Source of the DNA: Phycisphaeraceae bacterium
GTDB taxonomy: Bacteria; Planctomycetota; Phycisphaerae; Phycisphaerales; UBA1924
NCBI GenBank assembly: GCA_019636795.1
Contig: JAHBWW010000006.1
Coordinates: forward strand, 39,253-103,252
Reading direction: 5' to 3'
DNA length: 64,000 nt
Part shown: positions 42,770 to 61,728 of the stretch, piece by piece
How the letters are laid out: each line of letters starts with the position of its first letter
Position numbering within the stretch: position 1 is the stretch's first letter
Notes under the pieces: generated by a model
The model's database searches: none
Seen by the model: the letters and a program-made list of their open reading frames with translations, nothing else
Told to the model about the DNA's origin: nothing
Made by a program: the position numbers and the translations under genes

Positions 42770-42870
42770 GTGGTCCTTTCTCTGACGTATGGTACATGCC
42801 ATGGAGGCGGGCGGTTGGGGGTCCGGGGGGTCGCGGGTCTGGCACGTTGAGTTGCCGCATATCCTCACTC

Positions 42871-45594: not shown

Positions 45595-45625
45595 CCTATC
45601 CTGCCCGCAACAAGAAGCCAAAGGG

Positions 45626-45690
45626 CACACCGACCGCTCAGAGCCGCGGTCGGTGGCACGGGGGATCGACGGTTTTGGTCGGTGCCACCC
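45626..45690 (+). repeat. REP-like element, copy 2
   Basis: CACACCGACCGCTCAGAGCCGCGGTCGGTGGCACGGGGGATCGACGGTTTTGGTCGGTGCCACC. Stem 1 is CACCGACCGC/GCGGTCGGTG; stem 2 is GGTGGCAC/GTGCCACC. Confidence 0.9.
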
Positions 45691-45729
45691 GCCATCACCA
45701 TTATTGAGCACGTCAATCTCCCATAAATC

Positions 45730-46341
45730 ATGCCATACACACTATTTACATCTCCAGTCGGCTTTAACTGTATCGAGATGACTCGAACGCAGGCAAAGCA
45801 ATTTTTTGAGCATTTCATGAATCAAATGCCGGAGCGTATCCAAATGTTGAGCCTTGAAGTTCGTGAGACATCCGGTTTTGAGGCATGGATTCCGGATGGG
45901 AGTGAACAATCTGTTCTTGGACTTGGGTTATGGCTCAAAGATCAAGCCAAAGCTCGGGAACTCACTGAGGAAGACCGTCAACAAATTGGTATTATCGACG
46001 ACAATCCGCTAAACGAGTGGATTGCAAGAACTCACATCGAAATGTCTGCAAAAACTTACTCGTACAGCATAGATTCTGGCATGTACTTCGGGGAAATTAT
46101 TCGAACCCGTCATCCGGCTACCGCGTGGCGGATCGGGTCAAAACCTAAGCGCGGAGTGAATTATAATCGTCCAGTCGTTGCGACGGAGGATGATTATTTT
46201 ATTATTGATCCAGTTGGGTGGATAGCCAATAGTCTTCATGGCTATTTATTGTATCGTCATGGAGTACCCGGATACGCGTCTGCCAGGAATTTTGACTTGT
46301 TGCGTGACCTGCATGAAAGAGAGCGTCATATTCAGCGATAG
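45730..46341 (+). CDS. hypothetical protein encoded by a conspicuously AT-richer gene
   Basis: 203-aa ORF with an ATG start. Normal mixed composition (K, E, I, N, F, Y frequent), unlike neighbouring genes. No motif recognised. Confidence 0.6.
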   Translation: MPYTLFTSPVGFNCIEMTRTQAKQFFEHFMNQMPERIQMLSLEVRETSGFEAWIPDGSEQSVLGLGLWLKDQAKARELTEEDRQQIGIIDDNPLNEWIARTHIEMSAKTYSYSIDSGMYFGEIIRTRHPATAWRIGSKPKRGVNYNRPVVATEDDYFIIDPVGWIANSLHGYLLYRHGVPGYASARNFDLLRDLHERERHIQR

Positions 46342-46483
46342 GGATCGGAATTGATCAGTTTTACGAGCAATGATACGTATTGTCATTGCCCTTCTGATCT
46401 TGGTCTTTGTTTGTACAACGTTTCCTGATCTCTCTATCTCCCATGACGGCATGAACTGGCTAGTGTGGGTGTGCGTGGACGGC

Positions 46484-46554
46484 AGGTGGCACCGACCGTC
46501 GACTTGGATTGACTTCTTCGTGCCACCGACCGCGGCTTTAAGCGGTCGGTGTGT
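46484..46554 (-). repeat. REP-like element, copy 3 (inverted orientation, divergent spacer)
   Basis: Reverse complement: CACACCGACCGCTTAAAGCCGCGGTCGGTGGCACGaagaagtcaatccaagtcgaCGGTCGGTGCCACC. Confidence 0.85.
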
Positions 46555-46579
46555 TTTCGAGTGAGTCAGTTCGATCGGT

Positions 46580-47260
46580 TCATACATATCCCTCCCACAT
46601 GGCCCAGGCGCGGGGGTCGCCTGGCGGCCAATCGCATGGGACATCTGCTGGATCCTGCTCGTGGCTTCGCTGGCGTGCGAACCACCATCGCGCACTTGAC
46701 CAGCGCCAATCGAGCGGCGCTGCGACCAGACCTCGTGCGACCGGGTTGTGGTGTGTGTAGCGAATGGCTTTATTAAGTTCGGTCTGCTCGCGAACATTGC
46801 GGTCGAAGCCGCCGCCCTTCTGCCAGAATCGGGTCGCTCCATCGGCCCGGACGATCTCTGACGCGAGCGGATCGCCTGAGTGTCGAAGGAAACGAAGAAC
46901 ACGTTGCTGGATCGAGAGTTTAAGGGATTTGAGAACAGGAGCAAGCGGGGATCCGTCAGGTGGAATGAGGAGAAGGTGGGTGTGTTCGGGCATGGCGACC
47001 CAGGCCAGCAACTTGAAGCTCAGTCGGTCTCTGGCTTCGCGGAGCGAACGTGCGAAGAGATCGCGAGCGTCGGGGGAGCCGAGCAGCGGGAGCCGACGTT
47101 CGCAGGAGAATGTTATAAATCGGACGCCGCCCGGAACCTCGCGGCGGGTCATGTGTTTTCGTATGGGATGTGGACTACCGCTCGCATCCGAGGTTGTAGG
47201 CTTGGAGGAGGATGTGGCTTCAGGTCGGGGGTCGCTGTTCATCGCTGCAGCATACCGCAT
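46580..47260 (-). CDS. REP-associated tyrosine transposase (RAYT; IS200-like Y1 HUH transposase family)
   Basis: GGVRFITFSCERRLPLL, MPEHTHLLL (HUH), AIRYTHHNPVARGL (catalytic Tyr + HxNP), WRWSS. Start uncertain: ATG at 47260, 47242 or 47152; the track GTG is at 47320. Confidence 0.8.
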   Translation of the reverse strand: MRYAAAMNSDPRPEATSSSKPTTSDASGSPHPIRKHMTRREVPGGVRFITFSCERRLPLLGSPDARDLFARSLREARDRLSFKLLAWVAMPEHTHLLLIPPDGSPLAPVLKSLKLSIQQRVLRFLRHSGDPLASEIVRADGATRFWQKGGGFDRNVREQTELNKAIRYTHHNPVARGLVAAPLDWRWSSARWWFARQRSHEQDPADVPCDWPPGDPRAWAMWEGYV

Positions 47261-47317
47261 CCGTCGGAGGGGAAATGGATGTGCATTGCGGATGGAACGG
47301 GTTGAAGGTGGGGAAGG

Positions 47318-47380
47318 CACACCGACCGCTCAAAGCCGCGGTCGGTGGCACGGGGGATCGACGGTTTTGGTCGGTGCACC
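47318..47380 (+). repeat. REP-like element, copy 4
   Basis: CACACCGACCGCTCAAAGCCGCGGTCGGTGGCACGGGGGATCGACGGTTTTGGTCGGTGCACC. Abuts the 5' end of the RAYT ORF. Confidence 0.9.
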
Positions 47381-47390
47381 CGCCGGGGAG

Positions 47391-47461
47391 GGGATTGTTG
47401 GCAGGGGTGTTACAAGAGACCAAGACACACCGACCGCTCAGAGCCGCGGTCGGTGGCACGG
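47391..47461 (+). repeat. REP-like element, copy 5 (5' extension as in copy 1; only the first hairpin is present)
   Basis: GGGATTGTTGGCAGGGGTGTTACAAGAGACCAAGACACACCGACCGCTCAGAGCCGCGGTCGGTGGCACGG. Confidence 0.85.
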
Positions 47462-47737
47462 TGAGCGTGGATGGCGAGGGGTGGTTGGTGCCACAACGCT
47501 GTTGGCGCGGGAATCTGGAGTTGTGGGAGAGGGATGAGGCTTTGTGAACTTTCGTTTCCTCTGCCCCTTCGGGGCAGGGTTGGAGAGATGCGGGTCTGTT
47601 CCACGGGTTGCGCTGCGCCCGGCTGGGGCCGGGCTGCGCTTCACCCGTGGCTACAAGCCTTCGCCCCTTCGGGGCGAGGACGTGCGGGAGCGTAATGGGT
47701 ACGACTGCGCGAGCTGATCGGCTGCGAGTCGTGGCGC

Positions 47738-47870
47738 GCGAGGTGGGAGTTGGGGCACGCGAGGTGGGAGTTGTGGCACGCGAGGTGGGAGTTGTGGCAC
47801 GCGAGGTGGGAGTTGTGGCACGCGAGGTGGGAGTTGTGGCATGTGAGGTGGGAGTTGTGGCATGTGAGGG
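47738..47870. repeat. 21-bp tandem repeat array, about 6.3 units
   Basis: GCGAGGTGGGAGTTGTGGCAC repeated head-to-tail at 47738, 47759, 47780, 47801, 47822 and 47843, plus a partial unit. Variants occur only at unit edges (GGGGCAC, GGCAT, GTGAGG). Confidence 0.95.
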
Positions 47871-47962
47871 ACGGGTGTTGTCGCACCGAAGTCGCAGAGC
47901 CGACTTCGGTGGCACGCCGACATCGTGGCACGGGTCATGAGACGGTTCGAAAGGGCGAAGAC

Positions 47963-48025
47963 ACACCGACCGCTCAGAGCCGCGGTCGGTGGCACGGGGG
48001 ATCGACGGTTTTGGTTGGTGTCACC
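47963..48025 (+). repeat. REP-like element, copy 6
   Basis: CACACCGACCGCTCAGAGCCGCGGTCGGTGGCACGGGGGATCGACGGTTTTGGTTGGTGTCACC. Confidence 0.9.
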
Positions 48026-48048
48026 AGCCGGAGAGAGTGGTCGGAGAA

Positions 48049-48070
48049 CCCAGGGATTGGGATCCCTGGG
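48049..48070. repeat. palindromic hairpin repeat, copy a
   Basis: CCCAGGGAT-tggg-ATCCCTGGG embedded in GAGAACCCAGGGATTGGGATCCCTGGGCTTGGGGG. Confidence 0.9.
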
Positions 48071-48226
48071 CTTGGGGGTCGGGTGGGTTTGGTGTTGGGC
48101 ATCATGGATGTTCATGATGGGCCTTGGGCGGCGTATTGCAAGGGGTTTTGGAGGTTGGGTCGGGAACTTGCGAGCGTGGGGGGATGGGGGGAGATTTTGG
48201 GGAGGTCGGGTTGAAGTCGGGGAAGG

Positions 48227-48289
48227 CACACCGACCGCTCAGAGCCGCGGTCGGTGGCACGGGGATCGACGGTTTTGGTTGGTGTCACC
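48227..48289 (+). repeat. REP-like element, copy 7
   Basis: CACACCGACCGCTCAGAGCCGCGGTCGGTGGCACGGGGATCGACGGTTTTGGTTGGTGTCACC. Its 3' end supplies the stop codon of the PPTase ORF. Confidence 0.9.
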
Positions 48290-49172
48290 AGCCGGAGAGA
48301 GTGGTCGGAGAACCCAGGGATTGGGATCCCTGGGCTTGGGGGAGTGTGGTTGGAGAACCCAGGGATTGGGATCCCTGGGCTTGGGGGTCGGTGGCATGGG
48401 GAGGGTGGATGGCGAGTGCGGCGGTGTGGGCAGGGTCGGCGGGATCGAGTGCGAGGTTGGTCAGGTGGATGGGTGCGGGGCTCTTGAGCGCGTTGGGGCT
48501 GGGGAGCGCGACGGTATTGCGGCTGGGCAGTGCGACGGCACCTGGGCTTGGGGGAATGACGGTATTGGGGCTGGGGAGCATGATGGTATCGGGGCGGGTG
48601 TCGATGGTTTGGGGGTTGGTGGCGAAGCCGGTGCCGAGGGCTTTGAGGAGGGCTTCTTTGCGGGTCCAGAGTTGGAAGAAGTGCTGCGGTTGTGCGGTGG
48701 GCGGGAGTGCGGCGTGGGCTGCGAGTTCGTCCGGGTGCATGAAGATGCGGGCGGCGTCGAGGGTTGCGTGGGCGGGGTCGATGTGGGCCAGGTCGATGCC
48801 GAGGCGGCGGTGCGGGGCGAGCGCGAGGGCGGCGATGTTGCCAGCGGACGCGGTCGAGAGGTGGATGTGTGTGAGGTGATGGGGGGCGGTGATGGTGGGG
48901 CAGCCTAGGGCGTCGTGGGTGATGCGGATGTCGGCGGGGGCGAGGTTGAAGGTGCGGGCGATGAATTGGGTGCGCCACCAGCGGCGGCAGATGAAGCGGG
49001 CGCGGTGAAGACCAGAGCGCAGCGATGCGGCGCGGGTTTGCTCGGCTGGGTCGAGGGTTGCGGCGAGGGCGTCGAGGGGTTCGCTTATGGTGTCGAGCGC
49101 GATCATGGCGGTCAGGACGCCATCGAAGGGCTCGGGCAGCGCGAGGGGCGAGGTGGAGAGTGCGAAGGTCAC
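48285..49172 (-). CDS. Sfp-type 4'-phosphopantetheinyl transferase (with repeat-encoded C-terminal tail)
   Basis: RRLGIDLAHI and FFQLWTRKEALLKALGTG, the PPTase motifs. Lies 30 nt downstream of the NRPS stop. GTG start at 49172 (alternative ATG 49106). Confidence 0.85.
   Translation of the reverse strand: MTFALSTSPLALPEPFDGVLTAMIALDTISEPLDALAATLDPAEQTRAASLRSGLHRARFICRRWWRTQFIARTFNLAPADIRITHDALGCPTITAPHHLTHIHLSTASAGNIAALALAPHRRLGIDLAHIDPAHATLDAARIFMHPDELAAHAALPPTAQPQHFFQLWTRKEALLKALGTGFATNPQTIDTRPDTIMLPSPNTVIPPSPGAVALPSRNTVALPSPNALKSPAPIHLTNLALDPADPAHTAALAIHPPHATDPQAQGSQSLGSPTTLPQAQGSQSLGSPTTLSGW
48313..48334. repeat. palindromic hairpin repeat, copy b
   Basis: CCCAGGGAT-tggg-ATCCCTGGG. Confidence 0.9.
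48358..48379. repeat. palindromic hairpin repeat, copy c
   Basis: CCCAGGGAT-tggg-ATCCCTGGG. Confidence 0.9.
48498..48617. repeat. imperfect 24-bp tandem repeat x5 inside the PPTase ORF tail
   Basis: Units GCTGGGGAGCGCGACGGTATTGCG / GCTGGGCAGTGCGACGGCACCTGG / GCTTGGGGGAATGACGGTATTGGG / GCTGGGGAGCATGATGGTATCGGG / GCGGGTGTCGATGGTTTGGGGGTT. Confidence 0.7.
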
Positions 49173-49202: not shown

Positions 49203-52200
49203 TCAGGTTGAGGAGGAGGTGTGAATGGGGGCGGGGGTGAGGATGCGGTCGAGTTCGCGTGCCAGGACGCCGGCGGAGCGCGGGCTAAAGAAGTTGAGAT
49301 GGTCGCAGGGGAGTGGATGGACGTTGAGCTCGCCGCGGGCGAAGTTTTCCCAGCCGAGGGCGTGGAGGTCTTTGTATTCGTCTTCCTGATGCTGGGCGCG
49401 GAGGAGGGAGATGGGTCCGGCCCAGGGGCGGGGGCGGTATTTGAAGTAGGCGGAGAGGTTGGCGAAGCGCACTGGCCAGGGGCGGAGGCGGCGCGGGATG
49501 GGGAGGTTGAAGCGTGCGCAGAGTTTGTAGGCGTTGCGTTCGACGGGGCCGATCCAGAGCGTTCGGAGGAAGTGGCGCGGGCCGGAGCGGAGTTGATAGA
49601 TGAAGCGTTTGCGGAGGGTGCGCTGGAGCGAGCGACCGGCGGCCTGTCGGAGGACTCGGGTGTCGATCATGATGATGCGTTCGACGGGCTGATCGAGTTG
49701 TGTGAGGCGGTGGGCGATTTCGAGTGCGATGGCGCCGCCGAGGGAGTAGCCGCCGAGGATGTAGGGGCCTTGCGGTTGGATGGTGCGGATGGCGTCGAGG
49801 TAATGATCGGCCATGTCTTCGATGGTGGTCAGCGGGGTTGCGTCGCCGTGGACACCGCGTGCCATGATGCCGTAGAGGGGCTGATCGGGGGAGAGGCCGG
49901 GGAGAAGGCGTTCGAGGAAGAGGACGTTGCCGTCCATGCCGTGGATGCAGAAGAAGGGGATGCGTGAGCCGGTGGTGCGGAAGGGGGCGATGACGGAGGT
50001 GTCGTGTGGGGATTGATTGCCTTCGATGAGGTCGCGCAGGGCGGCGGGGGTGGAGGCGCGGAGGAGGGCGGCGAGGGGGATGGTCTTTTTGAACTCGGCT
50101 TCGATGCGTGCGACGAGTTTGACGGCGAGGAGGGAGTGGCCGCCGAGGTCGAAGAAGGATTGAGCAGGGCCGACGGCGGGGAGGGCGAGGAGGGATTGGA
50201 AGATTTCGCAGATGCGGCGTGTGGTGGGATCGGTGATGGGCTCGGTGGTGATGATGTTGGTGGGGTCGGGGAGGGCGGTGCGGTTGAGTTTGCCGTTGGG
50301 GGTGCGCGGGAGGTGATCGAGGGGGATGAGTGCGGCGGGGAGCATGTAGTCGGGGAGGCGGCCTTTGAGGAAGCGGCGGATTTCGGGCGTGTGGTCGGTG
50401 GGCTCGGTGCTGCCGTTGGCTGGGACGAAGTAGGCGTGGAGTGCGGTGCCGGTGTGGGTGTTGCGCGCGATGACGGCGGCTTCGAGGACGGCGGGGTGCA
50501 TGCTGATGGTGTGTTCGACTTCGCCGAGTTCGACGCGGAAGCCTCGGATTTTGGTCTGGTTGTCGGCGCGGCCGAGGTATTCGAGGTTGCCTTGGTCGTT
50601 CCAGCGTGCGAGGTCGCCGGTGTTGAAGAGGGTTGATGCGTTGAGTTCGGGGATGGGGATGGGGTTGGGGTTGGGGAGGAAGCGTTCGGCGGTGAGGTCG
50701 GGGCGGTTGTGGTAGCCATCGGCGAGGCATGGTCCGGCGACGTGGATGATGCCGGGGACGTTGGGGGGGGTTGGGTGGAGGCGATGATCGAGGAGGGCGA
50801 TTTTGACGTTGGAGATGGGGCGGCCGATGGGAATGACACCGGCGTCGATGTCGGCGGAGGTGACGACGTGTGCGGTGGCGTCGGCGGCGATTTCGGATGA
50901 GCCGTAGAGGTTGATGAGTTCGACGTGCGGGAGTGCGGCGAGGAAGCGCTGGGCGCGGTTCCAGGAGAGTGCTTCGCCGCTGGAGACGCAGATGCGGAGG
51001 TGCGGGAGGTGTTTGTGGAGGTCTGGGTGTGTGTCGAGGATGGCTTCGAGGAGTGCGGGGACGACGGTGATGCGTGAGATTTTGTTTTTGCGGAGTGCGG
51101 CGACGAGTGCGCGTGGGTCTTTGACGGTTTGGTGTGGGAGGATGTTGATGGGGACGCCGGCGAGGAGTGGACCGAAGGCTTCCCAGACGTGATCGACGAA
51201 GTTGATGGTGGTCTGCCAGGAGGTGGTTTCGTTTGGTTGGAAGGGTCGCCAGTTCCACATCCATCGGAAGCGGTTGATGGCGCCGGCGTGTGTGCCGCGG
51301 ACGCCTTTGGGGAGGCCCGTGGAGCCGGAGGTGTAGGTGATGTAGGCGACGGTTGCGTCGGGCGATGGGAGGGGGGCGTTGGAGGGTTTGATGGTGGCGA
51401 TGTTGATGACGGTTGCGAGGCTGGGAGGGAGAACGGCGGCGGTGTCGGCGGTTGCGAGGACGAATGGGGGTGCGGCGTCGCGGAGGATGTGTTCGAGGCG
51501 TGCTGCGGGGTAGGTGGGATCGAGTGGGACGTAGCAGCAGTTGGCGCGGAGGACGCCGAGGAGGGCGGTGGGGAGCTGGAGCGATGGTTCGATGCAGACT
51601 GCGATGGGGGTGTTGGGCGAGACGCCGAGGGAGATGAGGTGGGCGGCGACTGCGGCGCTCTGGCGGTCGAGGGCGGCGTAGGTGAGCGAGGAGGAGTTGT
51701 ATCGGTATGCGGTGGCGTTTGGGGTTTTGCGGGCTTGCTCGGCGAAGAGGCTTTGGATGGTGGCGGGAGGGTTTGAGGCGATGGTTTGATTGGGGAGCGT
51801 GATGAGGCGAAGGCGATCGGCGTCGTCGGTGATTTCGATTGCGTCGATGGAGAGGGCCGGATCGGCGGCGAGGCGGCGCATGGTGCGCAGGGTGTCATCG
51901 AGGAGTTGGCGGACGAGTGCGGGATCGACGGCTGCGGTGTCGAATCGGGCTTCGATGTCGAATGTTTTCCATGGGGTGACCATGAGGGTGAGGGGGACGT
52001 CGGTCCAGCCGAAGGATTTTGGGGATTCGATGGAGATTGGTGATGCGCGGCCGGAGCGTGCGTCGTCGAGGGGGTAGTTGCCGAAGACGACGATGGAGTT
52101 GAAGAGTGGGGTGCGTGGTGGGAAGTGTGCGCAGCGGTGGATGTCGGAGAGGGGGGTTTGTTCGAAGCGGGTGGAGTCGGAGATTTGTTTCTGGATTGAG

Positions 52201-53156
52201 GAGAGGAAGTCGGCGATGGTTGTGTTGCGGGGGATCTGGGCGCGGACGGGTGCGGCGTTCATGAGGAGGCCGACGATGCGTTCGATGTCTGGGGTGTCGA
52301 GTGAGCGGCCTGAGAAGGTGGTGCCGAAGATGATGTCGTCGTTGCGTGTGTAGCGGCTGAGGACGAGGGTCCATGCGGCGAGCATGAGTGTGCTGAGGGT
52401 GAAGCGATTTTCGCGTGCGAACTGCCTGATGTGTGTGTAGTCGGAGTCGGGGAGAGTTGCGGGGATGACGGTGGGTTGTCTGGAGCGTCCGGGGATGTCG
52501 TGGTCGGGGCGAGAGGCGGGGAGTGGAGTGGGGGTATCGAGGCCGGCGAGGAGAGCGGTCCAGTAGCGCTCGGCATCGGAAGCGGGGAAGCGGGCCAGAG
52601 CGGCGAGGGCGCTTTGGAATGAAGCGGGGGGAGGGAGATCGGGAGCGTGGTTCTGGGTGAGTGCGTGGTAGGTTGCGTGGACGTCGGCGAGGATGATGGA
52701 GACGGACCATGCGTCGATGAGGATGTGGTGGAATGACCAGATGACGCGGTGGAGGTTGTGTTCGAGACGCGCGAGGGCGAAGCGCATGAGTGGGGGGCGG
52801 GTGAGTTTGAAGAGTGTGGCGCGATCGCGCGCGAGATAGTCGTCGAGTGGTGGCGCGTCGGGGGTGGACCAGTCGAGGTTGGTCCAGGGGAGGTTGACGT
52901 GCTTGCGGATGATCTGGAGGGGGCGGTCGTCTTTTTGCCAGATGAATTGTGCGCGGAGGGCGGGGCAGCGGGCGATGACGGATTCCCATGCGCGCTGATA
53001 TGCGGCGGGATCGATGGGGCCACGGATGAGGAAGGTGAATTGCTCGAAGTATGCGATGGAGTCCGGGGCGTGAGCGATTTCGAGCAGCGTGAACTGCTGC
53101 ATTGGAGTCAGAGGGAGGATGTCCTGAACGTTTTCAAGTGCTGGGCGGTCACTCAT
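49203..53156 (-). CDS. non-ribosomal peptide synthetase, terminal module C-A-T-TE (1317 aa)
   Basis: ATG 53156 overlaps the upstream NRPS stop by 8 nt (GATGAGTGA). C domain: LPLTPMQQ, SFHHILIDAWS. A domain: AYITYTSGSTGLPKGV, NLYGSSE, NTGDLARW, GRADNQTKIRGFRVELGEVE, PNGKLNR. T domain: FFDLGGHSLLAV. TE domain: GYSLGGAIALE. Confidence 0.95.
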   Translation of the reverse strand: MSDRPALENVQDILPLTPMQQFTLLEIAHAPDSIAYFEQFTFLIRGPIDPAAYQRAWESVIARCPALRAQFIWQKDDRPLQIIRKHVNLPWTNLDWSTPDAPPLDDYLARDRATLFKLTRPPLMRFALARLEHNLHRVIWSFHHILIDAWSVSIILADVHATYHALTQNHAPDLPPPASFQSALAALARFPASDAERYWTALLAGLDTPTPLPASRPDHDIPGRSRQPTVIPATLPDSDYTHIRQFARENRFTLSTLMLAAWTLVLSRYTRNDDIIFGTTFSGRSLDTPDIERIVGLLMNAAPVRAQIPRNTTIADFLSSIQKQISDSTRFEQTPLSDIHRCAHFPPRTPLFNSIVVFGNYPLDDARSGRASPISIESPKSFGWTDVPLTLMVTPWKTFDIEARFDTAAVDPALVRQLLDDTLRTMRRLAADPALSIDAIEITDDADRLRLITLPNQTIASNPPATIQSLFAEQARKTPNATAYRYNSSSLTYAALDRQSAAVAAHLISLGVSPNTPIAVCIEPSLQLPTALLGVLRANCCYVPLDPTYPAARLEHILRDAAPPFVLATADTAAVLPPSLATVINIATIKPSNAPLPSPDATVAYITYTSGSTGLPKGVRGTHAGAINRFRWMWNWRPFQPNETTSWQTTINFVDHVWEAFGPLLAGVPINILPHQTVKDPRALVAALRKNKISRITVVPALLEAILDTHPDLHKHLPHLRICVSSGEALSWNRAQRFLAALPHVELINLYGSSEIAADATAHVVTSADIDAGVIPIGRPISNVKIALLDHRLHPTPPNVPGIIHVAGPCLADGYHNRPDLTAERFLPNPNPIPIPELNASTLFNTGDLARWNDQGNLEYLGRADNQTKIRGFRVELGEVEHTISMHPAVLEAAVIARNTHTGTALHAYFVPANGSTEPTDHTPEIRRFLKGRLPDYMLPAALIPLDHLPRTPNGKLNRTALPDPTNIITTEPITDPTTRRICEIFQSLLALPAVGPAQSFFDLGGHSLLAVKLVARIEAEFKKTIPLAALLRASTPAALRDLIEGNQSPHDTSVIAPFRTTGSRIPFFCIHGMDGNVLFLERLLPGLSPDQPLYGIMARGVHGDATPLTTIEDMADHYLDAIRTIQPQGPYILGGYSLGGAIALEIAHRLTQLDQPVERIIMIDTRVLRQAAGRSLQRTLRKRFIYQLRSGPRHFLRTLWIGPVERNAYKLCARFNLPIPRRLRPWPVRFANLSAYFKYRPRPWAGPISLLRAQHQEDEYKDLHALGWENFARGELNVHPLPCDHLNFFSPRSAGVLARELDRILTPAPIHTSSST

Positions 53157-56100
53157 CCGTGAACTCGCTTGCGTCGAAGAGTGCGGACAGACGTGCGAGG
53201 CCTTCATCGTCGAGGCCTGCGAGGGGGAAGGCGCTGGCTGCTGCGGGAGCGGTGTTTGATGCTGCTGCGGCGTCGCGGATGATGTGGGCGATTGCGGTAG
53301 AGAAGTTTGCAGCGAGCGACTGGATCGTGGATTCGTTGTGGAGCGCGGAGCTTGCGATCCAGTCGATGCGGAGTACGTCATCGACGATCATGGCGTCGAC
53401 TTCGATGATGGCTGGGCGTGTGTTTGAAGGGTGGCGTGTTGGGCCACAGGAAGTGCGTGCGATGCGGAGGCTCCAGCCCTGGGAGAGGGATTGATCGAAT
53501 TGTCCAAGGTAGTTGAATGAGAGTGCGGCGGGCGCGGCCTGGCGGATAGCGCTCCCGAGATCGGTGGTATCCCATGAGCGTGCGAGGCCGAAACCGATGC
53601 CGCGTGCAGGGATCTGTCGGAGGTGTTCGCGTGCAGCGTTGATTGCGGAGGCGGGGTTGGTCATTGTGTGAAGTGGGAGGGCGACGGGGAAGAGGGTGGT
53701 GAACCAGCCGACGGTGCGTGAGACGTCGAGATCGTCGGAGATTGCTTCGCGGCCATGGCCCATCATGTCGATGCGAAGGGTGTCGCGGCTGACCCATTGG
53801 CGGAGGGTGATGCCGAGTGCTGCGAGGAGAATGTCGTTGATCTGTGCGTGATATGAGGCTGGGACATCGTGGAGGAGTGCGCGCGTTGCGGCGGGGTCGA
53901 TGATGGTGGTGTGGACGATGGCGGATGCTTCGGTGTTGTCGGCTGCGGGGTGATCGAGGGGGATCTGCGGTGAGGCGGCGAGTTCGCGCATCCACCATTC
54001 GCGCTGTTGCGGCGAAGCGGAGATTGAGGGTGTGTGTTGCTCGAGCGCGTGTGCCCAGTCGCGGAGGGAGTGGGTCTTTTGTGGGAGGGAGGGGGACTGG
54101 CCCTGCGAGATGTGTTCGCAGGCGAGCATGAGGTCTTCGATGATGAGGCGCCAGGAGAAGCCATCGAGGACGAGGTGATGTGCTGCCATGAGGAGGCGTG
54201 CGGAGCCGCCGTTGCGTTCGCGGAAGAGGACTGCGCCGAAGAGGGGGCCTTGTGCGAGATTGAAACCTGTCTGGAGGGTGGTGCCGTGGCGTTCGACGGA
54301 GGCATCGGCGGCGGGGGTGGAGAATTGATCGACGAGCGCGGTGTGGAATGCGAGATTGGTTGCGTCGGGGGTGTCGAAGTGCTGGGTCCAGGTCTGATCG
54401 TTTCGTTGGTAACGGAGGCGCAGGGCATCGTGATGATTGACGACGGCGAGCAGTGCGCGTCGGAAGGTGAGGTCGTCGATGCGTGAGGGGACTTCGAGCA
54501 TTATGGCTGCGTTCCAGTGCGATGGCTGGGCGAGGTTCTGATCGAGGAGCCACTGCTGGATTGGAATGAGCGGGGAGTGTCCGGTGACGGGGCCCTGATG
54601 TGCGGTGAGTGCTGCGGCTTGTCGAGCGTGCGGGGCGAGGAGTGCGATTGTTGGATGATCGAAGAGTTGGTTTGGGGTGATGAGGATGCCGTGGCGGCGT
54701 GCGCGTGCGCAGATCTGAATGCTGAGGATGGAGTCGCCACCGATTTCGAAGAAGTTGTCGTTGAGTGCGACGGAGTCGAGGCGGAGGACTTGAGCCCAGA
54801 CGGCGGCGAGGGTTGACTCGAGATCGGTCGCGTGCTCGGCGGCAGAGCGATCGGCGGCGGATGCGGCGGCGCGCGAGGGGGCAGGGAGTGCGCGGCGGTC
54901 GAGTTTGCCGTTGGAGGTGACGGGGAGCGAGTCGAGGGTGACGAAGGCTGCGGGGACCATGTATTCGGGGAGTGTGCGCGCGAGTGCGGCGCGGAGGGTT
55001 GCGTGATCGGCGCTACCGACGATGTATGCGACGATGCGTGGGCTGGCGGGGATGTCTTCGCGTGCGATGACGACGGCGTGCTGGACGTTGGGCTGGTGAG
55101 CGATTGCGTGTTGGATTTCGCCGAGTTCGATGCGGAAGCCTCGGATCTTGACCTGATCGTCGAGTCGGCCGAGGTATTCGATGGATCCATCGTTGAGGAA
55201 GCGTGCGAGGTCGCCGGTTTTGTAGAGTTTTTCGGCAGGGCGGAATGGGTGCTGGATGAAGCGTTCGGCGGTGAGTTCTGGTCGGTTGACGTATCCGATG
55301 CCGACCTGGATGCCTCCGATGTAGAGCTCGCCGGGAGTGCCGATGGGGGCGAGTTCGAGGCGTGGATCGAGGACGAGCAAGTGGGTGTTTGCGATGGGGA
55401 AGCCGATGGGGATGATGTTTCGTGGGTCGCGTGGGGCGCATTCCCATGCGGTGACATCGACTGCGGCCTCGGTTGGGCCATAGAGGTTTGCGAGGCGTAC
55501 AGCGGGGAGGATGGTGAAGAATCGCTGAACGAGATCGAATGGGAGGGCTTCGCCGGAGCAGACGACGCGGCGGAGGGAGGTGATGCGTGGGAGGGTTGGT
55601 TCTTCGAGGAATGCGCGGAGCATGGAGGGGACGAAGTGCATGACGGAGACGTTGTGGTGCTGGATGATGTGTGCGAGGTATGCGGTGTCGCGGTGACCTT
55701 CTGGTTTTGCGACGACGATTGCGGCGCCGGTGATGAGTGGCCAGAAGAACTCCCAGACGGAGACGTCGAAACTGAAGGGAGTTTTCTGAAGGACGCGATC
55801 GCTGGGGGTGAGTTGGTATTCGTCCTGCATCCAGAGGAGGCGGTTGATGATGGCGCGGTGGGCGTTGAGTGCGGCTTTGGGGCGGCCGGTGGAGCCTGAG
55901 GTGAAGATGGCGTATGCGGGGTCGTCGGGAGTTGCGGTGGAGGCGGGGGGGGTTGAGGGGGAAGTTGCGAGCGACGGATCGTCGAGGAAGAGAGTTGGTC
56001 CTTGCCAGTTGAGGGTGGCGAGTTGGGCGGAGGAGGATGGAAGCGTGGGGTCGGATGCGGAGGTGATGAAGGCGGCGAGGGCGGCGTCGTCGATCATGTT

Positions 56101-59100
56101 GGCGAGGCGCTCGGGGGGATAGGTTGGATCGAGGGGGACGTATGCGGCGCCTGCGCGCATGACGCCGAGGAGGGCGGCGACGAGCTCGGTGCTGCGCTGG
56201 AGGCAGACTCCGACGAGGGAGTGTGGTTTGACGCCGAGGGCGAGAAGTCGGTGTGCGATGCGGTTTGCGTTGGCGTCGAGTTGTGCGTAGGTGGTGGTCT
56301 GGTCGCTGAAGATGACGGCTGGTGCGTGAGGGGTTGCGGCTGCCTGTTGTGCGATGAGTTGATCGAGGGTGAGGTTTTGTGGATAGGGTCGTGCGGGGCC
56401 TGCGAAGTCATCGAGGAGTTGTCGTTTTTCGCTTTTTGGGAGCATGGCTGCGGGGGAGGCGGGCTGGTGAGGGTCGGCGGCGATGGCGCGGAGTGCGGCG
56501 AGGTAGTATCGGCCGATCTGCTTGACCTGATCGCGGGTCATGTGTTTGTTGTTGTAGTTGAGGACGACATCAAGGCGTTTGTCGTATGCGTCGACGCGGA
56601 AGTTTGCGACGAGGACGTAGTGGAATGGGTCGGTGAAATCGACGCGGAGGAACTCGATATCGTCGCGTCCGGCGAGGCGGTCGTAGACGTGGAAATGTGT
56701 GTAGTTGAAACCGGTTTCGAAGAGGTTGTCCTGACCTGCGCGGCCGAGATCGCGGAGGAGTTGTGCGCCGATGTATCGGCGGTGTGGGAGTGCGGCGAGT
56801 TCGGCGTGGTGTGCTGATTGTGCGAGTTCGAACCAAGTCTGGTCGGCGACGTGGAGGCGGTAGGGCATGGTGTTGAGGTGGTTGCCGAGGGAGGAGTCGC
56901 CGCCCGGGTCTTCGATGCGGCCGTTCATGACGAGGCCTGTGACGACGTCGTCCTGATGAGCGAGCATGCCGAGGACGCGCGTGTGCGCGGCGAGGTAGAA
57001 GGACTTGAGCGGGATTGCGAGTTCGCGTGCGCGTTCGATGACGCGCTGGTTGACGTCGGCGGGGATGGGGACGATGAGGTCGAGATTGCGTGCGACGGGG
57101 ACATCGGCTCCGACGCCGGGGATGCGCGGGACTTGTGTGAAGGGGGCGTCGTCCATGAGTCCGGCCCAGAAAGTCTGGGCGTCGTGGGAGTTGAGGGTGG
57201 TGCGTTCGAGGGCGACGAAATCGCGGTATGTGATGGGGTTTGGTGTGAGATCGAGATCGGGGGCGCCGGCGAGCATGTTGACGTAGCGGGAGAAGATTTC
57301 GGTCATCATGTTCGACGTGCTCCAGCCGTCGAGGATTGCGTCGTGGAAGGTGATGCCGAACTGGAAGGTGTCGGGGGAGCGTTTGTGGACGGTGTATTTG
57401 AGGAGCGGGGGGCGAGACCAATCGAATTCGTATTCGGCTTCGTCGTCGATCCATCGGGCGAGGAGGGCTTGCTGCGATTCGGAGGGGAGGTGGGAGATAT
57501 CGTGGTATTCGATTGGGGCTGAGGCGGCAGCGTGTACGAGTTGCATTGGTTCGGCGAAGGTGCCGAGGTCGAAACTGGTGCGGAGGATGGGATTGCGTGC
57601 GACGACCTGATCGACGGCGCGCTGGAGGAGCGTGAGGTCGAGTCGTGCGCGGACATGGAGGCTCATGGCGACTTGATAGAGGTATGAGCCGATGGCGCGT
57701 TCGCTGTGAAAGACCATGCCGCTCTGGAGTGCGCTGAGGGGGTAGGCGTCGATGATGTCGGGGGGGAGTTTTGCGCGGTCGTTTGCGGAGATGAGTTGGA
57801 ATGGCTGGGTGCGCGTGGTGGCGGTGGATTGAGCAGTTGCAGCGGTTGAGGCGAGGGCGCGGACGGTGGGCGCGCGGAAGAGGTCGTGGACTGCGATATG
57901 GATGTCTGCGTCGGAGGCTTTTGCGACGATGCGGAGGGCGAGGATTGAGTCGCCGCCGATTTCGAAGAAGTTGTCGTCGATGGAGACACGCGGGAGGTTG
58001 AGGACCTGGGCCCAGATTTGTGCGAGTTGTGCTTCGGTGTCGGAGGTTGGGGCGACAAAGGGGCGATCGGAAGCGAAGGCGGAGCCGCGGGGCGGGGCGG
58101 GGAGTGCGCGGCGATCGAGTTTGCCATTTGCGGTGACGGGGAGAGCATCGAGGGTGACGAAGGCAGCGGGGACCATGTATTCGGGGAGGAGTTTTGCGAG
58201 TGCATCGCGGAGTGCGCTGTGGGTGGCGCTGCCGACGATGTATGCGACGAGGCGTTTGGTGCCTGGGACATCTTCGCGTGCGAGAACGACGGCTTCCTGA
58301 ACGTCGGGTTGGGCGGAGAGGACGAATTCGATTTCGCCAAGTTCGATGCGGAAGCCTCGGATCTTGACCTGGTCGTCGAGTCGGCCGAGGTATTCGATGG
58401 AGGCATCGGGGAGGAAGCGTCCGAGGTCTCCGGTTTTGTACATTTTCTCGCCGGGGCGGAATGGGTTCTGGATGAAGCGATCGGCGGTGAGTTCTGGTCG
58501 GTTGACGTAACCCATGCCGACCTGTATGCCTCCGATGAAGAGTTCGCCGGGGACGCCGGTTGGTGTTGGGGTCAGGTGATCGTCGAGTGCGTACATGAAG
58601 GTATTTGGGACGGCGCTGCCGATTGGGACGATGCCGCGTGGGTCGTTGGGGTGGCATTCCCATGCGGTGACATCGACGGCGGCCTCGGTTGGGCCATAGA
58701 GGTTGGCGAGGTGAGCGTTTGGGAGGCGCGAGAAGAATCGTTCGACGAGATCGAAGGGGAGTGCTTCGCCGGAGCAGACGACGCGGCGAATGGTGGTGCA
58801 ACTGGTGACGTTGCGCTCTTCGATGAAGACGCGGAGCATTGAGGGGACGAAGTGGAGGACAGTGACGGCGTGGTGTGCGATGAGGTCTACGAGGTAGGCG
58901 CTGTCGCGGTGGCCTTCGGGCTTGGCGACGACGATGGTGGCGCCGGTGATGAGTGGCCAGAAGAACTCCCAGACGGAGACGTCGAAGGAGTATGGTGTTT
59001 TCTGGAGGACGCGGTCGGTGGGGGTGAGTTGATAGTGCTCCTGCATCCACATGAGGCGGTTGATGATTGCGACATGTGCGTTGGCGGCGCCTTTTGGTTT

Positions 59101-61260
59101 GCCGGTGGAGCCGGAGGTGAAGATGACGTATGCGGGGTCGTGCTCAGTTGCGGGGCATGTGGGCGTGTGGGCGGGGTTAGCAGCGAGGGAGGGATCATCG
59201 ACGAAGAGGGTTTGGCCTTGCCAGTCGAGGGATTTGTAGAGGGGTGTGGTTGAGTGAGATGAGGGTGAGTTTTGTGACGTGACGAGGACGGCGAGGTGTG
59301 CGTCTTCGATCATGTTTTTGAGGCGTTCGATGGGGTATGAGGGGTCGAGGGGGACGTAGGCGCCGCCGCTCTTGATGACGGCGACGAGGGTTGCGACGAG
59401 TTCGGTGCTGCGTTCGAGGCAGACGCCGACGAGTGAGCCGGGCTTGACGCCCTGTGCGATGAGACGGTGTGCGATGCGGTTGGAGAGCGCGTCGAGTTGT
59501 GCGTAGGTGGTGATGGTGTCGTTGAAGATGACAGCGGGCGCATCGGGGTGCTGGGCGACCATGCGGGCGATGAGATCGGCCAGGGTGATGCCGCGTTCGT
59601 AGTTGCGTGTGGGTCCTGCGAAGGTTTCGAGGACACGGCGGCGTTCTGCGGGAGTCAGAATGGAGAGGCGTGAGCCGAGTTCGTGAGGAGCAGCGGAGGC
59701 CTGGGCGAGGAGTTGCTGAAATTGTGCGGCGATGTCGATGGCCTGATCGGTTGGGACGGCATCGGTGCGGAAGCGGAGGGAGCAGCCGGTGTCGGAGGGG
59801 AGGAGTGTGATGGCGGCGCGGCTGGAGGCGTGAGGGGTGAGTTCGATTGCGGCGTGCCAGAGATGGGTTGAGCGCAGTTCGGCGATATCGCGGAGGCGTG
59901 TGCTGCGTGCGAGCAGATCGCGGGCGTAGGTTGGGTGCTTTGCCAGGGTTTCGAGTTCGGCGGTGATGGCGTGTTGTATGGACTGGAAAGAGGTTTCGAG
60001 GTTGAGATCGACGCGCATCGGCGGATGAGTCTCGAAGAGTTGACCGGCGGGCGCGAGTGGGTTGGGTTGCGCGGGTGTGTGGAGCGGGAGGTCGAAACGC
60101 GTGTTGCGTGAGACGCGCGCGAGATAGATGGCGAAGGCGGCGATCTGCTGGGCGGCGGTGGAGCCGAGGGGGGTTGCGATGTCGAGTGTGCTTGTTTCGG
60201 CTGAGGGGTCGGGGTGGAGTGACTGGAGGCTGGAGATGAAGGGCGTCTGGATGGGCTGGACGTTGGCGAGGCGGTTGATCCACCAGTTTTCGGTGCGGTG
60301 TGCGGCGGAGTCGAGCGCGATGATGCGCTGAAGTTCGGCGGGGTCAAGAGGTGGGAGTTGGCGTGCGCATGCGAAGCGGGGCTCGGCGAGGTTTGCGGGT
60401 GAGCCATCAATTTCGCGCAGGCCGAGGAGGCGGATGTCGGATGAGCCTCCGGTGCTGACGCGGAGGGATGCGTCGGCGACGGAGATGATGGTTCCGGGTG
60501 CGGAGTTTGGTCCGGTGTCGGTTGGAGCGGCATTGGTGGCGAAGAGGAAGCGTGATCCGGTCCAGATGCGTGCGGTGCCGAGGCGGTTGTCGTATGGGCC
60601 GAAGTCGAGGGCGCGTACGAGGCGGAGGAGATCGGTTGCGGAGGCAGTCCAATCGAGGATGCCTGCGTGGGGCGGGCGATGGTGTCGGCCGAACCATGTG
60701 CGCTGCGATTCGGACTGTGGCGCGCGTGAGTGAGTCTGCGATTCGAGTTGTGTGAGGAGCGTGCGAAATGAGCGGAGGGCGGCTTCGTATGCTTTTGCGT
60801 TGAGGGTGAAGGCGGAGTCGGCGGCGGAGATGGGGAATGGTTCGGACGCGAGAATGTCGCCGAAGTCGACGCGGTCGGTCATGACGTGCCATGAGACGGC
60901 GTGCTCGGTTTCGCCGGCGAGAATTGCCCATGATGTGGCGTGAATGCCGGCGTAACGCGGGAGTGGTCCGTCGTGATAGTTGATGGCGAGGTGAGTTGGC
61001 CAGGTCAGGGCGGTTGATGGAAGGACGTCGTTGTTGACGATGCTCCAGAGGAGGTCGGGGGCTTGGGGGGTGAGGGAGATCAGGCCTGCGAAATCGGAGG
61101 CGAAGGGGATTGAGGCTGCGTGTGCCCATGTTGCGACGCGTGGATCGGGCGATGCGACAGCGACGACGGAGTGTCCGCGGCGGAGGAGTTCGTCGGCGCA
61201 CTGGATGAGGACACTGCCGGTGCCGATCAATGCACAGCGGAATCGAATCTGAGGATTCAC
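53149..61260 (-). CDS. non-ribosomal peptide synthetase: formyltransferase-like domain, C-like remnant, then A-T-C-A-T-E
   Basis: GTG 61260 lies 6 nt after AGGAG (the track GTG 61302 is also possible). Fmt-like: CALIGTGS, NYHDGPLPRYAGIHATSWAI, MTDRVDFGDIL. A1: AYVIFTSGSTGKPKGA. T1: FFEIGGDSILAL. C: YPLSALQSGMVFH, FHDAILDGWS. A2: AYAIFTSGSTGRPKAA. T2: FFEIGGDSILSI. E: AAHHLVLDGFSWRLI. Confidence 0.95.
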   Translation of the reverse strand: MNPQIRFRCALIGTGSVLIQCADELLRRGHSVVAVASPDPRVATWAHAASIPFASDFAGLISLTPQAPDLLWSIVNNDVLPSTALTWPTHLAINYHDGPLPRYAGIHATSWAILAGETEHAVSWHVMTDRVDFGDILASEPFPISAADSAFTLNAKAYEAALRSFRTLLTQLESQTHSRAPQSESQRTWFGRHHRPPHAGILDWTASATDLLRLVRALDFGPYDNRLGTARIWTGSRFLFATNAAPTDTGPNSAPGTIISVADASLRVSTGGSSDIRLLGLREIDGSPANLAEPRFACARQLPPLDPAELQRIIALDSAAHRTENWWINRLANVQPIQTPFISSLQSLHPDPSAETSTLDIATPLGSTAAQQIAAFAIYLARVSRNTRFDLPLHTPAQPNPLAPAGQLFETHPPMRVDLNLETSFQSIQHAITAELETLAKHPTYARDLLARSTRLRDIAELRSTHLWHAAIELTPHASSRAAITLLPSDTGCSLRFRTDAVPTDQAIDIAAQFQQLLAQASAAPHELGSRLSILTPAERRRVLETFAGPTRNYERGITLADLIARMVAQHPDAPAVIFNDTITTYAQLDALSNRIAHRLIAQGVKPGSLVGVCLERSTELVATLVAVIKSGGAYVPLDPSYPIERLKNMIEDAHLAVLVTSQNSPSSHSTTPLYKSLDWQGQTLFVDDPSLAANPAHTPTCPATEHDPAYVIFTSGSTGKPKGAANAHVAIINRLMWMQEHYQLTPTDRVLQKTPYSFDVSVWEFFWPLITGATIVVAKPEGHRDSAYLVDLIAHHAVTVLHFVPSMLRVFIEERNVTSCTTIRRVVCSGEALPFDLVERFFSRLPNAHLANLYGPTEAAVDVTAWECHPNDPRGIVPIGSAVPNTFMYALDDHLTPTPTGVPGELFIGGIQVGMGYVNRPELTADRFIQNPFRPGEKMYKTGDLGRFLPDASIEYLGRLDDQVKIRGFRIELGEIEFVLSAQPDVQEAVVLAREDVPGTKRLVAYIVGSATHSALRDALAKLLPEYMVPAAFVTLDALPVTANGKLDRRALPAPPRGSAFASDRPFVAPTSDTEAQLAQIWAQVLNLPRVSIDDNFFEIGGDSILALRIVAKASDADIHIAVHDLFRAPTVRALASTAATAQSTATTRTQPFQLISANDRAKLPPDIIDAYPLSALQSGMVFHSERAIGSYLYQVAMSLHVRARLDLTLLQRAVDQVVARNPILRTSFDLGTFAEPMQLVHAAASAPIEYHDISHLPSESQQALLARWIDDEAEYEFDWSRPPLLKYTVHKRSPDTFQFGITFHDAILDGWSTSNMMTEIFSRYVNMLAGAPDLDLTPNPITYRDFVALERTTLNSHDAQTFWAGLMDDAPFTQVPRIPGVGADVPVARNLDLIVPIPADVNQRVIERARELAIPLKSFYLAAHTRVLGMLAHQDDVVTGLVMNGRIEDPGGDSSLGNHLNTMPYRLHVADQTWFELAQSAHHAELAALPHRRYIGAQLLRDLGRAGQDNLFETGFNYTHFHVYDRLAGRDDIEFLRVDFTDPFHYVLVANFRVDAYDKRLDVVLNYNNKHMTRDQVKQIGRYYLAALRAIAADPHQPASPAAMLPKSEKRQLLDDFAGPARPYPQNLTLDQLIAQQAAATPHAPAVIFSDQTTTYAQLDANANRIAHRLLALGVKPHSLVGVCLQRSTELVAALLGVMRAGAAYVPLDPTYPPERLANMIDDAALAAFITSASDPTLPSSSAQLATLNWQGPTLFLDDPSLATSPSTPPASTATPDDPAYAIFTSGSTGRPKAALNAHRAIINRLLWMQDEYQLTPSDRVLQKTPFSFDVSVWEFFWPLITGAAIVVAKPEGHRDTAYLAHIIQHHNVSVMHFVPSMLRAFLEEPTLPRITSLRRVVCSGEALPFDLVQRFFTILPAVRLANLYGPTEAAVDVTAWECAPRDPRNIIPIGFPIANTHLLVLDPRLELAPIGTPGELYIGGIQVGIGYVNRPELTAERFIQHPFRPAEKLYKTGDLARFLNDGSIEYLGRLDDQVKIRGFRIELGEIQHAIAHQPNVQHAVVIAREDIPASPRIVAYIVGSADHATLRAALARTLPEYMVPAAFVTLDSLPVTSNGKLDRRALPAPSRAAASAADRSAAEHATDLESTLAAVWAQVLRLDSVALNDNFFEIGGDSILSIQICARARRHGILITPNQLFDHPTIALLAPHARQAAALTAHQGPVTGHSPLIPIQQWLLDQNLAQPSHWNAAIMLEVPSRIDDLTFRRALLAVVNHHDALRLRYQRNDQTWTQHFDTPDATNLAFHTALVDQFSTPAADASVERHGTTLQTGFNLAQGPLFGAVLFRERNGGSARLLMAAHHLVLDGFSWRLIIEDLMLACEHISQGQSPSLPQKTHSLRDWAHALEQHTPSISASPQQREWWMRELAASPQIPLDHPAADNTEASAIVHTTIIDPAATRALLHDVPASYHAQINDILLAALGITLRQWVSRDTLRIDMMGHGREAISDDLDVSRTVGWFTTLFPVALPLHTMTNPASAINAAREHLRQIPARGIGFGLARSWDTTDLGSAIRQAAPAALSFNYLGQFDQSLSQGWSLRIARTSCGPTRHPSNTRPAIIEVDAMIVDDVLRIDWIASSALHNESTIQSLAANFSTAIAHIIRDAAAASNTAPAAASAFPLAGLDDEGLARLSALFDASEFTDE

Positions 61261-61356
61261 AGAGCGCTCCTGCAAAGGGAATCGTGCACGCCGAGGGTGC
61301 ACGGCATGATGAGATTGGATCGGTAAGTCGGACGGAGAGGCGCGATCGGCGTGCGA

Positions 61357-61728
61357 TCAGCGGTTGTCGTAGCGGATGATTTCGTCGATTGTGTTGTCGG
61401 GCTTCATGAGGACGGCGCGGGGTTTGTGGAGGCGGTATTCGTCGTCGTTCATGAAAGCGTAGTGCATGATGATGACGACATCGCCTTTTGAGGCGAGGTG
61501 GCCTGCGGCACCGTTGATGATGATTTGTCGTGAGCCGGCTTCGCCGCGGAAGACATAGGTCTCGAAGCGTGAGCCGGTGTTGCAGTTGGCGATGACGACC
61601 TGGTCGTTTGGGCGCATGCCGCTGGCTTCGAGGAGGTCGGCGTCGATGGTGATGGAGCCGACGTAGTCGATGCGTGCTTCGGTGACGACGGCTCGGTGGA
61701 TTTTGGAGTGAAGGACTGCACGAAACAT
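61357..61728 (-). CDS. panD: aspartate 1-decarboxylase (pyruvoyl-dependent)
   Basis: MFRAVLHSKIHRAVVTEARIDYVGSITID (Gly-Ser self-processing site), NGAAGHL. First gene of the NRPS operon. Confidence 0.95.
   Translation of the reverse strand: MFRAVLHSKIHRAVVTEARIDYVGSITIDADLLEASGMRPNDQVVIANCNTGSRFETYVFRGEAGSRQIIINGAAGHLASKGDVVIIMHYAFMNDDEYRLHKPRAVLMKPDNTIDEIIRYDNR

Follow-up and report, generated by a model that had tools for sequence, protein, structure and literature searches.

Organization of the locus

The stretch of DNA analyzed here (64,000 nucleotides, called the window throughout, with a G+C content of 59-67%) comes from a Phycisphaeraceae bacterium of the Planctomycetota (assembly GCA_019636795.1, contig JAHBWW010000006.1, positions 39,253 to 103,252 of the forward strand). 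Its minus strand carries an operon with the gene order panD, NRPS1, NRPS2 and a gene for a Sfp/HetI-like 4'-phosphopantetheinyl transferase (PPTase). The panD gene codes for an aspartate 1-decarboxylase, and the two that follow for the proteins of a nonribosomal peptide synthetase (NRPS), in which formyltransferase (F), adenylation (A), carrier (T), condensation (C), epimerization (E) and release (TE) domains were recognized (Table 1). NRPS1 has 2703 aa according to the metagenome gene calls, versus 2717 aa for the open reading frame (ORF). In NRPS2 the Pfam matches cover residues 10-449 (Condensation), 471-816 (AMP-binding), 879-956 (AMP-binding_C), 980-1043 (PP-binding) and 1068-1291 (Thioesterase). 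We have centered the analysis on the adenylation domain of this second protein, the third of the assembly line (A3). In this domain an aspartate of the substrate pocket is displaced by one position, and its sequence points, with good confidence, to an intact NRPS domain that activates beta-alanine. The first-pass annotation of the window had proposed the same substrate and had assigned its supply to the PanD of the operon.

A shifted aspartate in the third adenylation domain

The region in question lies at positions 51180-51200, where the plus strand reads ttcccagacgtgatcgacgaa. Its reverse complement, TTCGTCGATCACGTCTGGGAA, is read as TTC GTC GAT CAC GTC TGG GAA and gives F-V-D-H-V-W-E at the place of the A4 motif. 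In order to locate the residues of the pocket, the three adenylation domains of the operon were aligned with MAFFT to GrsA-PheA, whose sequence yields, as a check, DAWTIAAICK at the code positions 235, 236, 239, 278, 299, 301, 322, 330, 331 and 517. The alignment of A3 is free of gaps from about PheA 190 to 283. Since F234, W239 and E240 are in register and the spacing from Phe to Trp is that of FDxSxWE, the aspartate falls on PheA position 236 and a valine on 235. The same gap-free pairing was obtained with phmmer against LgrA module 2 and with a profile of the A3 clade (see below) against the PDB. The complete code of A3 is VDWTVSLADK, identical to the one that had been derived by eye in the first-pass annotation, and the displacement from 235 to 236 that it had described, as well as the canonical FDVSVWE motif of both upstream domains, was recovered in these alignments.

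Apart from this displacement the domain looks complete. The core motifs YTSGSTGLPKG, NLYGSSE, NTGDLARW, GRADNQTKIRGFRVELGE and PNGKLNR are all intact, Lys956 is the equivalent of Lys517, and the score on TIGR01733 is 355 bits (cut-off 317). In the PDB, A3 finds its best matches among canonical domains of FD type, for example LgrA module 2. A1 and A2 share the serine-like code DVWHVSLVDK. Compared with it, A3 is identical at positions 239, 299, 301, 322, 331 and 517 (positions 301-517 of its code read S-L-A-D-K), has the D/V pair swapped and has His278 replaced. This histidine is thought to recognize the hydroxyl of serine. Judged by the code, the pocket of A3 is thus a near relative of the adjacent serine pocket.

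In canonical adenylation domains Asp235 binds the alpha-ammonium group of the substrate. Asp655 of NRPS2, at position 236, would instead bind an amino group located one carbon further from the carboxylate, a geometry that beta-alanine would fit, while Lys956 would hold the carboxylate. The remainder of the pocket, formed by Trp239, Thr278, Val299, Ser301, Leu322, Ala330 and Asp331, would be small. With Trp239 in particular, the 2-methyl group of beta-aminoisobutyrate (BAIBA) could probably not be accommodated, which would favor the unbranched beta-alanine.

A large and widespread clade of VD-type domains

None of the 120 best homologues of A3 among 5.8 billion proteins exceeds ~50% identity. 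In spite of this distance, [V/L/I/A]-D at positions 235/236 together with NLYGSSE was found in ~115 of them, usually as FVDSVWE, and the consensus code is VDWV[V/I/T]SLADK. Asp191 of the clade alignment, which corresponds to position 236, is invariant, and the two serines of the A5 motif (S289 and S290) are nearly so. The form NLYGSSE, previously noted as atypical for A3, is then a signature of the whole clade. Trp at 239 is also shared by A3 and almost all of its relatives, and at position 278 A3 has Thr where most of the clade has Val.

A scan of genomes with the A4-A5 part of the clade recovered 78 loci, in which the most frequent codes were VDWVVSLADK (28 loci) and VDWVISLADK (12). They are distributed over Chloroflexota, Ktedonobacteria, Acidobacteriota, Gemmatimonadota, cyanobacteria, myxobacteria, Alpha- and Betaproteobacteria and other groups; the VDW...SLADK clade has very many members and a broad taxonomic range. 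The nearest genomic relatives are two metagenome-assembled genomes (MAGs) of Phycisphaerae (loci L004 and L005), whose domains are 64% and 62% identical to A3. Both have the A4 motif FVDHVWE, the A3 code VDWVVSLADK, upstream adenylation domains with codes DVWH[V/I]SLIDK and the order NRPS1-NRPS2-PPTase of the window; their PPTases match Pfam ACPS. The presence of FVDHVWE in these two MAGs and of [VLIA]D throughout the clade indicates that the shift is no sequencing quirk. The flanks examined in the scan were of 10 kb, and those of L004 and L005 end exactly at the start of NRPS1, leaving the panD position outside.

Many of the VD-type homologues are not modules of large synthetases but free-standing A-T proteins of ~600-650 aa, found for instance in Ktedonobacteraceae, Corallococcus and Pyxidicoccus. 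This suggests a common stand-alone didomain that loads beta-alanine.

Comparison with known beta-amino-acid domains

Domains with a displaced aspartate have been documented in several biosynthetic clusters. In the supplement of the kasichelin study (Fig. S44) the codes LDGTISLADK (KasE-A1), LDTTVSLADK (SurC-A1), LDTTVSLGDK (CdeI-A1) and GDAVFSLADK (CrpD-A1) are given. The KasE module places beta-alanine or BAIBA in the kasichelins, and SurC, CdeI and CrpD contribute the BAIBA-specific domains in the clusters for surugamide, cadaside and cryptophycin (PMC12305651). All four resemble A3 in having Asp at 236 and not at 235, the tail S-L-[A/G]-D-K and Thr or Val at 278, with Thr278 common to A3, SurC, KasE and CdeI. 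Comparing only the 10-residue codes, A3 is identical to SurC-A1 at 8 of 10 positions, to KasE-A1 and CdeI-A1 at 7 of 10 and to CrpD-A1 at 6 of 10. They differ at position 235, which is Val in A3 and its clade and Leu or Gly in the four characterized domains, and in origin, as the characterized shifted-aspartate domains come from actinomycetes or cyanobacteria and A3 from a member of the Phycisphaerae. The link made in the first-pass annotation between codes starting with V-D and beta-amino-acid domains is therefore backed by the published xD..xSL[AG]DK codes (PMC12305651), although it does not extend to every such enzyme.

The exception is the group of VinN, IdnL1, CmiS6 and HitB, in which beta-amino acids are selected on the ANL adenylation fold, as we predict for A3. 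VinN-type enzymes keep the equivalent of Asp235 (D230 in VinN) and owe their specificity to a beta13-beta14 loop that is one residue shorter (PMC11253843), whereas in A3 position 235 is Val and the alignment to GrsA is gap-free between PheA 322 and 331. On these alignments A3 and the VinN-type enzymes are different structural solutions. VinN had also been considered as a precedent for the shifted aspartate and was rejected, since D230 equals D235 according to the Heard and Winter review (PMC11253843).

Full-text literature searches with the code strings VDWVISLADK and VDWTVSLADK and with fragments of them returned nothing relevant, and those pairing Asp235 or D235 with beta-alanine were without result. 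The PARAS supplement holds no codes, and the Delftia paper has nothing on beta-alanine.

PanD and its linkage to the NRPS genes

The product of the first gene scores 144 bits on the NCBIfam equivalog model TIGR00223 for panD (cut-off 106) and also matches Pfam PF02261 (Asp_decarbox). The self-processing site Gly24-Ser25 lies in the stretch YVGSITID. The predicted catalytic residues, in the E. coli numbering, are K9, H11, Y22, G24/S25, R54, T57, Y58 and N72. By these sequence features the gene codes for a bona fide PanD.

Exact copies of this PanD were found on metagenome contigs of the European Nucleotide Archive (ENA) that bear the same operon. In a search centered on PanD, the closest homologues, at 71-98% identity, were followed, in every one of the Phycisphaeraceae genomes checked, by the same two NRPS genes on the same strand (loci L001, L002 and L082-L088, including GCA_019636845.1, GCA_964588385.1 and GCA_019454185.1, the latter on the 3.8 Mb sequence CP075368.1). 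The downstream architecture in these genomes is F-A-T-C-A-T-E followed by C-A-T-TE, the NRPS pair begins ~88 nt downstream of panD, with gaps of ~55-96 nt, and the identity of A3 is ~63%. Upstream of panD, on the other hand, the window has an ORF of 629 aa in the opposite orientation, and those genomes have a protein kinase, a globin, an ECF sigma factor and a 233-aa protein. As the upstream flank varies and the order panD-NRPS is kept, these genes stay together while their surroundings change.

Two of the 78 VD-type loci from the genome scan, unrelated to the operon of the window, carry a PanD as well. One, in a Parvularcula sp. MAG (L021, LYSZ01000024.1, 1-10524), is an unrelated locus that combines NRPS and polyketide synthase (PKS) genes. 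Its A-T protein has the same code as A3 (VDWTVSLADK) and is followed by the gene of an AAA_21 ATPase, inserted there, then by a PKS with the domains KS-AT-KR-ACP, a protein with a C domain and PanD (Asp_decarbox). In the other, from a cyanobacterial bin (L050, JBCDDJ010000544.1, 3272-4344), an NRPS gene coding for a VD-type domain is immediately followed by PanD, 64 nt past the stop codon. The VD-type domain of this second locus seems truncated soon after A5 and runs into a carrier-like segment with the serine replaced (GGNRVS); the module may be degenerate or an assembly artefact.

A beta-alanine supply encoded within the cluster has a precedent in corramycin, from Corallococcus. In the proposed pathway ComE forms beta-alanine by decarboxylation of aspartate, and labelled aspartate labels the beta-alanine unit incorporated by NRPS module 4 (PMC10099666). 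The likeness to the window is the supply of an NRPS module by a cluster-encoded aspartate decarboxylation. The architectures differ, the corramycin module being C-A-MT-T followed by a PKS module inside a 12-module line, and the one described here a terminal C-A-T-TE of a tripeptide line. The layout of the Parvularcula locus is nearer than our operon to the corramycin logic of beta-alanine plus malonate. A Corallococcus locus among the scan results (L060) was considered as the corramycin cluster and rejected, having no MT or PKS and a different architecture.

Alternative explanations

The substrate proposed for A3 is supported by the clade, by the likeness of the codes and by the linkage to PanD, but a number of observations weigh against one or another part of the proposal. 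At position 239 the documented shifted-aspartate domains have Thr, Gly or Ala, and A3 has Trp. Among the PDB matches to the single sequence or to the clade profile there was no solved structure of the VD-type clade, and we found no documented biochemical or labelling data for A3 or for any W239 'VDW' member. Prediction tables assign VDWVISLADK to beta-alanine, although the literature searches gave no text source for this assignment. As for PanD, it groups with ordinary PanDs of Phycisphaerae and Planctomycetota, and in other Phycisphaerales the PanDs that do not exceed 64% identity stand alone, in housekeeping contexts without NRPS genes. In the 1.17 Mb of flanks of the 78 VD-type loci only two PanDs were present, where chance would give 0.15-0.39; the enrichment is modest (P ~0.01-0.06). 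The PanD of the operon may be the only copy in the cell, serving coenzyme A (CoA) synthesis too and not dedicated to the cluster; our confidence in a dedicated PanD is lower than in the substrate class.

This last point leads to what we regard as the most serious competitor, to which we give a substantial though minor share of the probability, namely that A3 does bind beta-alanine but PanD is a single housekeeping enzyme of the pantothenate/CoA pathway that is merely adjacent to the NRPS genes or co-transcribed with them. The nearest relatives of PanD, all from Phycisphaerae or Planctomycetota, suggest vertical descent and not acquisition together with the cluster. The PanDs at 62-64% identity are solitary and in variable contexts, and no second PanD exists within the 64-kb window. 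Against mere adjacency stand a same-strand arrangement and short gap that persist at 71-98% identity of PanD and ~63% of A3 despite the differing flank, and the PanDs of the two unrelated VD-type clusters. The only terminator-like hairpin of the region between panD and NRPS1 overlaps the NRPS1 start, in a count no higher than that of shuffled sequences; the scan of the whole operon for promoters and terminators likewise gave no more sites than shuffles and was uninformative. Concerning the provenance of beta-alanine, the first-pass annotation thus stands as far as the enzyme is a true PanD, and less so in making it the operon's own, given that it is typical of its lineage and may be just the housekeeping copy.

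An unlikely alternative is that A3 activates another small non-alpha-amino substrate, such as (R/S)-3-aminoisobutyrate, isoserine, 2,3-diaminopropionate via its beta-amine or gamma-aminobutyrate (GABA). The closest characterized codes speak in its favor, as SurC, CdeI and CrpD use 3-amino-2-methylpropionate and KasE accepts both beta-alanine and BAIBA (PMC12305651), and A3 departs from the Val278 of most of its clade precisely with the Thr of SurC, KasE and CdeI. But the bulk of Trp239, in place of the Thr, Gly or Ala of BAIBA-type domains, would argue for an unsubstituted substrate, the Phycisphaerae orthologues carry the plain consensus VDWVVSLADK and, in the Pfam and NCBIfam annotation of the window proteins, the operon encodes PanD but no aminomutase, methyl-aspartate-forming enzyme or aminotransferase. 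Far less probable still, to the point of hardly affecting our assessment, is that the loss of Asp235 marks an aryl-, alpha-hydroxy- or alpha-keto-acid domain and hence a depsipeptide or a capped terminus. Substitution of Asp235 has been reported for domains activating hydroxy or carboxy acids (PMC11356792), but A3 retains the adjacent aspartate at 236, invariant in the clade, its SLADK tail matches beta-amino-acid domains, the preceding condensation domain is of the ordinary amide-forming DCL type and the module is without a ketoreductase domain. Activation of beta-alanine remains our preferred reading of A3.

The rest of the assembly line and the predicted product

NRPS1 starts with a formyltransferase domain fused to the first A-T module, as in LgrA of the linear gramicidin synthetase, which implies an N-formylated first residue. 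The best solved relatives of this domain are ArnA and Met-tRNA formyltransferase, and the Asn/His/Asp residues of NYHDG...VDFGD are conserved. It differs from the domain of LgrA, absent among its PDB sequence matches, in being closer to ArnA/Fmt, in having Formyl_trans_C and in its separation from A1 by ~265 residues that match no Pfam family (domain and spacer together, 59593-61062).

The condensation domain of module 2 has its best PDB matches in the C domains of McyA (2.2e-100) and AmbE (2e-62), with other C domains at 1e-31 or worse. The CmodAA type is described by a [K/R]SxxLAAH ([K/R]SVLLAAH-like) motif and a strictly conserved DG, with the second His mutated in 3 of 50 catalogued domains (PMC11342130). 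The domain of the window shares the motif and the DG with AmbE, McyA and Crz1-C2 and, as in Crz1, comes after a serine module with an N-cap. It differs in the catalytic second His of HHxxxDG, which is Asp (HDAILDG). KSFYLAAH and HDAILDG are kept in all Phycisphaerae orthologues examined. Its PDB matches and motifs place the domain in the dehydrating CmodAA type, which suggests that the first serine becomes dehydroalanine. NRPS1 ends in a domain whose best PDB matches are the E domains of PvdL, BacC, TycB, GrsA and TycA. The C domain that opens NRPS2 is best matched by those of McyB, PvdL (557-1006, after its E domain), SrfA-C and TycB, all of them of DCL type.

Put together, PanD would decarboxylate L-aspartate to beta-alanine, which A3 would adenylate and load onto the carrier domain of module 3 (T3). 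The DCL-type C domain would then join it to the upstream formyl-dipeptidyl thioester, and TE would release the product. From the domain types, the predicted product is N-formyl-Ser-D-Ser-beta-Ala, with the first serine probably dehydrated to dehydroalanine, an option that follows from the CmodAA type of the first C domain. A more specific proposal, which we put forward as speculative and rather doubtful, is that the operon makes a small electrophilic peptide not described before, namely N-formyl-dehydroalanyl-D-seryl-beta-alanine or a lactone or oligomer that TE would form from this peptide, by means of the ArnA-like F domain with its 265-residue spacer, the CmodAA domain with the His to Asp change and the only PanD of the cell.

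Table 1. Features of the operon in the window (positions of the window; PheA, numbering of GrsA-PheA).
Feature	Position	Strand	Basis or remark
panD, aspartate 1-decarboxylase, 123 aa (MFRAV...)	61357..61728	-	First operon gene; Pfam PF02261, TIGR00223
NRPS1, ORF of 2717 aa, F-spacer-A1(Ser)-T-C(CmodAA type)-A2(Ser)-T-E	53149..61302	-	Pfam, codes, PDB matches
F (formyltransferase) domain, ArnA/Fmt-like, NRPS1 N-terminus	60391..61062	-	Pfam Formyl_trans_N and Formyl_trans_C
C domain of module 2, CmodAA type	56383..57795	-	PDB matches McyA, AmbE
HDAILDG active-site motif of the module 2 C domain	57319-57345	-	
E (epimerization) domain, NRPS1 end	53260..54582	-	PDB matches to E domains
NRPS2, 1317 aa, C(DCL)-A3-T-TE	49203..53156	-	Pfam
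C domain of module 3, DCL-like, active site HHILIDA	51810..53129	-	PDB matches
A3 adenylation domain, code VDWTVSLADK, predicted substrate beta-alanine	50262..51764	-	Residues 465-965 of NRPS2
A4 motif F-V-D-H-V-W-E of A3	51180..51200	-	NRPS2 residues 653-659; sequence and alignment
Val654 (PheA 235)	51195-51197	-	
Asp655 (PheA 236)	51192-51194	-	
Trp658 (PheA 239)	51183-51185	-	
A5 motif N-L-Y-G-S-S-E of A3	50892..50912	-	Canonical form NxYGPTE
Lys956 (PheA Lys517), A10 motif PNGKLNR	50289..50291	-	Alignment
T (carrier) domain of module 3, GGHSL	50028..50219	-	Pfam and motif
TE release domain, GYSLGG	49284..49955	-	Pfam and motif
Sfp/HetI-like 4'-phosphopantetheinyl transferase	48285..49172	-	Last operon gene; NCBIfam HetI 1.1e-22, below model cut-off

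Neighboring features

Just downstream of the operon a hairpin-containing element of ~68 nt (core CACACCGACCGCTCAGAGCCGCGGTCGGTGGC) is present in six copies, and a 21-nt tandem repeat is present in seven copies; the repeat regions extend over 45529-48294, 47702-47890 and 48261-48387. Further dispersed repeats reach into the PPTase ORF at its 3' end; this ORF has 295 aa here versus 235 aa in the orthologues. The ORF at 46580-47320 resembles by eye a REP-associated (IS200-like) transposase, with no Pfam match at E<=0.001. Beyond the repeats there is a McrBC-type restriction pair (39805-42868, minus strand), consisting of an AAA_5 ATPase of 621 aa and a McrBC-family component of 414 aa. Between this pair and the repeats are a protein of the PEP-mutase/isocitrate-lyase family (42796-43749, plus strand) and a DUF2961 protein (43816-44913, plus strand), for which no link to the NRPS was seen.

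The two strands of the window are very strongly asymmetric in composition. Over 1-36 kb the GC skew lies at about -0.25 to -0.39, and over 48-64 kb at +0.35 to +0.48, with the strand switch at ~36-44 kb. The skew follows the coding strand, C being much more abundant than G in the sense strand, and this results in many long spurious ORFs rich in Pro, Arg and His in the other frames.

Implications

Shifted-aspartate codes for beta-alanine or BAIBA and cluster-encoded aspartate decarboxylases were already known, and in this sense our result is confirmatory, adding a new member from an unstudied lineage. A limited literature search found no characterized nonribosomal peptide from Phycisphaerae. 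For an orphan NRPS operon that is conserved in a family of these bacteria, the analysis predicts with confidence, at the level of single residues, that the C-terminal unit is beta-alanine. One assay or one structure from the VDW...SLADK clade would be enough to annotate thousands of domains. If the operon does draw on the only PanD of the cell, the supply of a CoA precursor would be tied transcriptionally to secondary metabolism.

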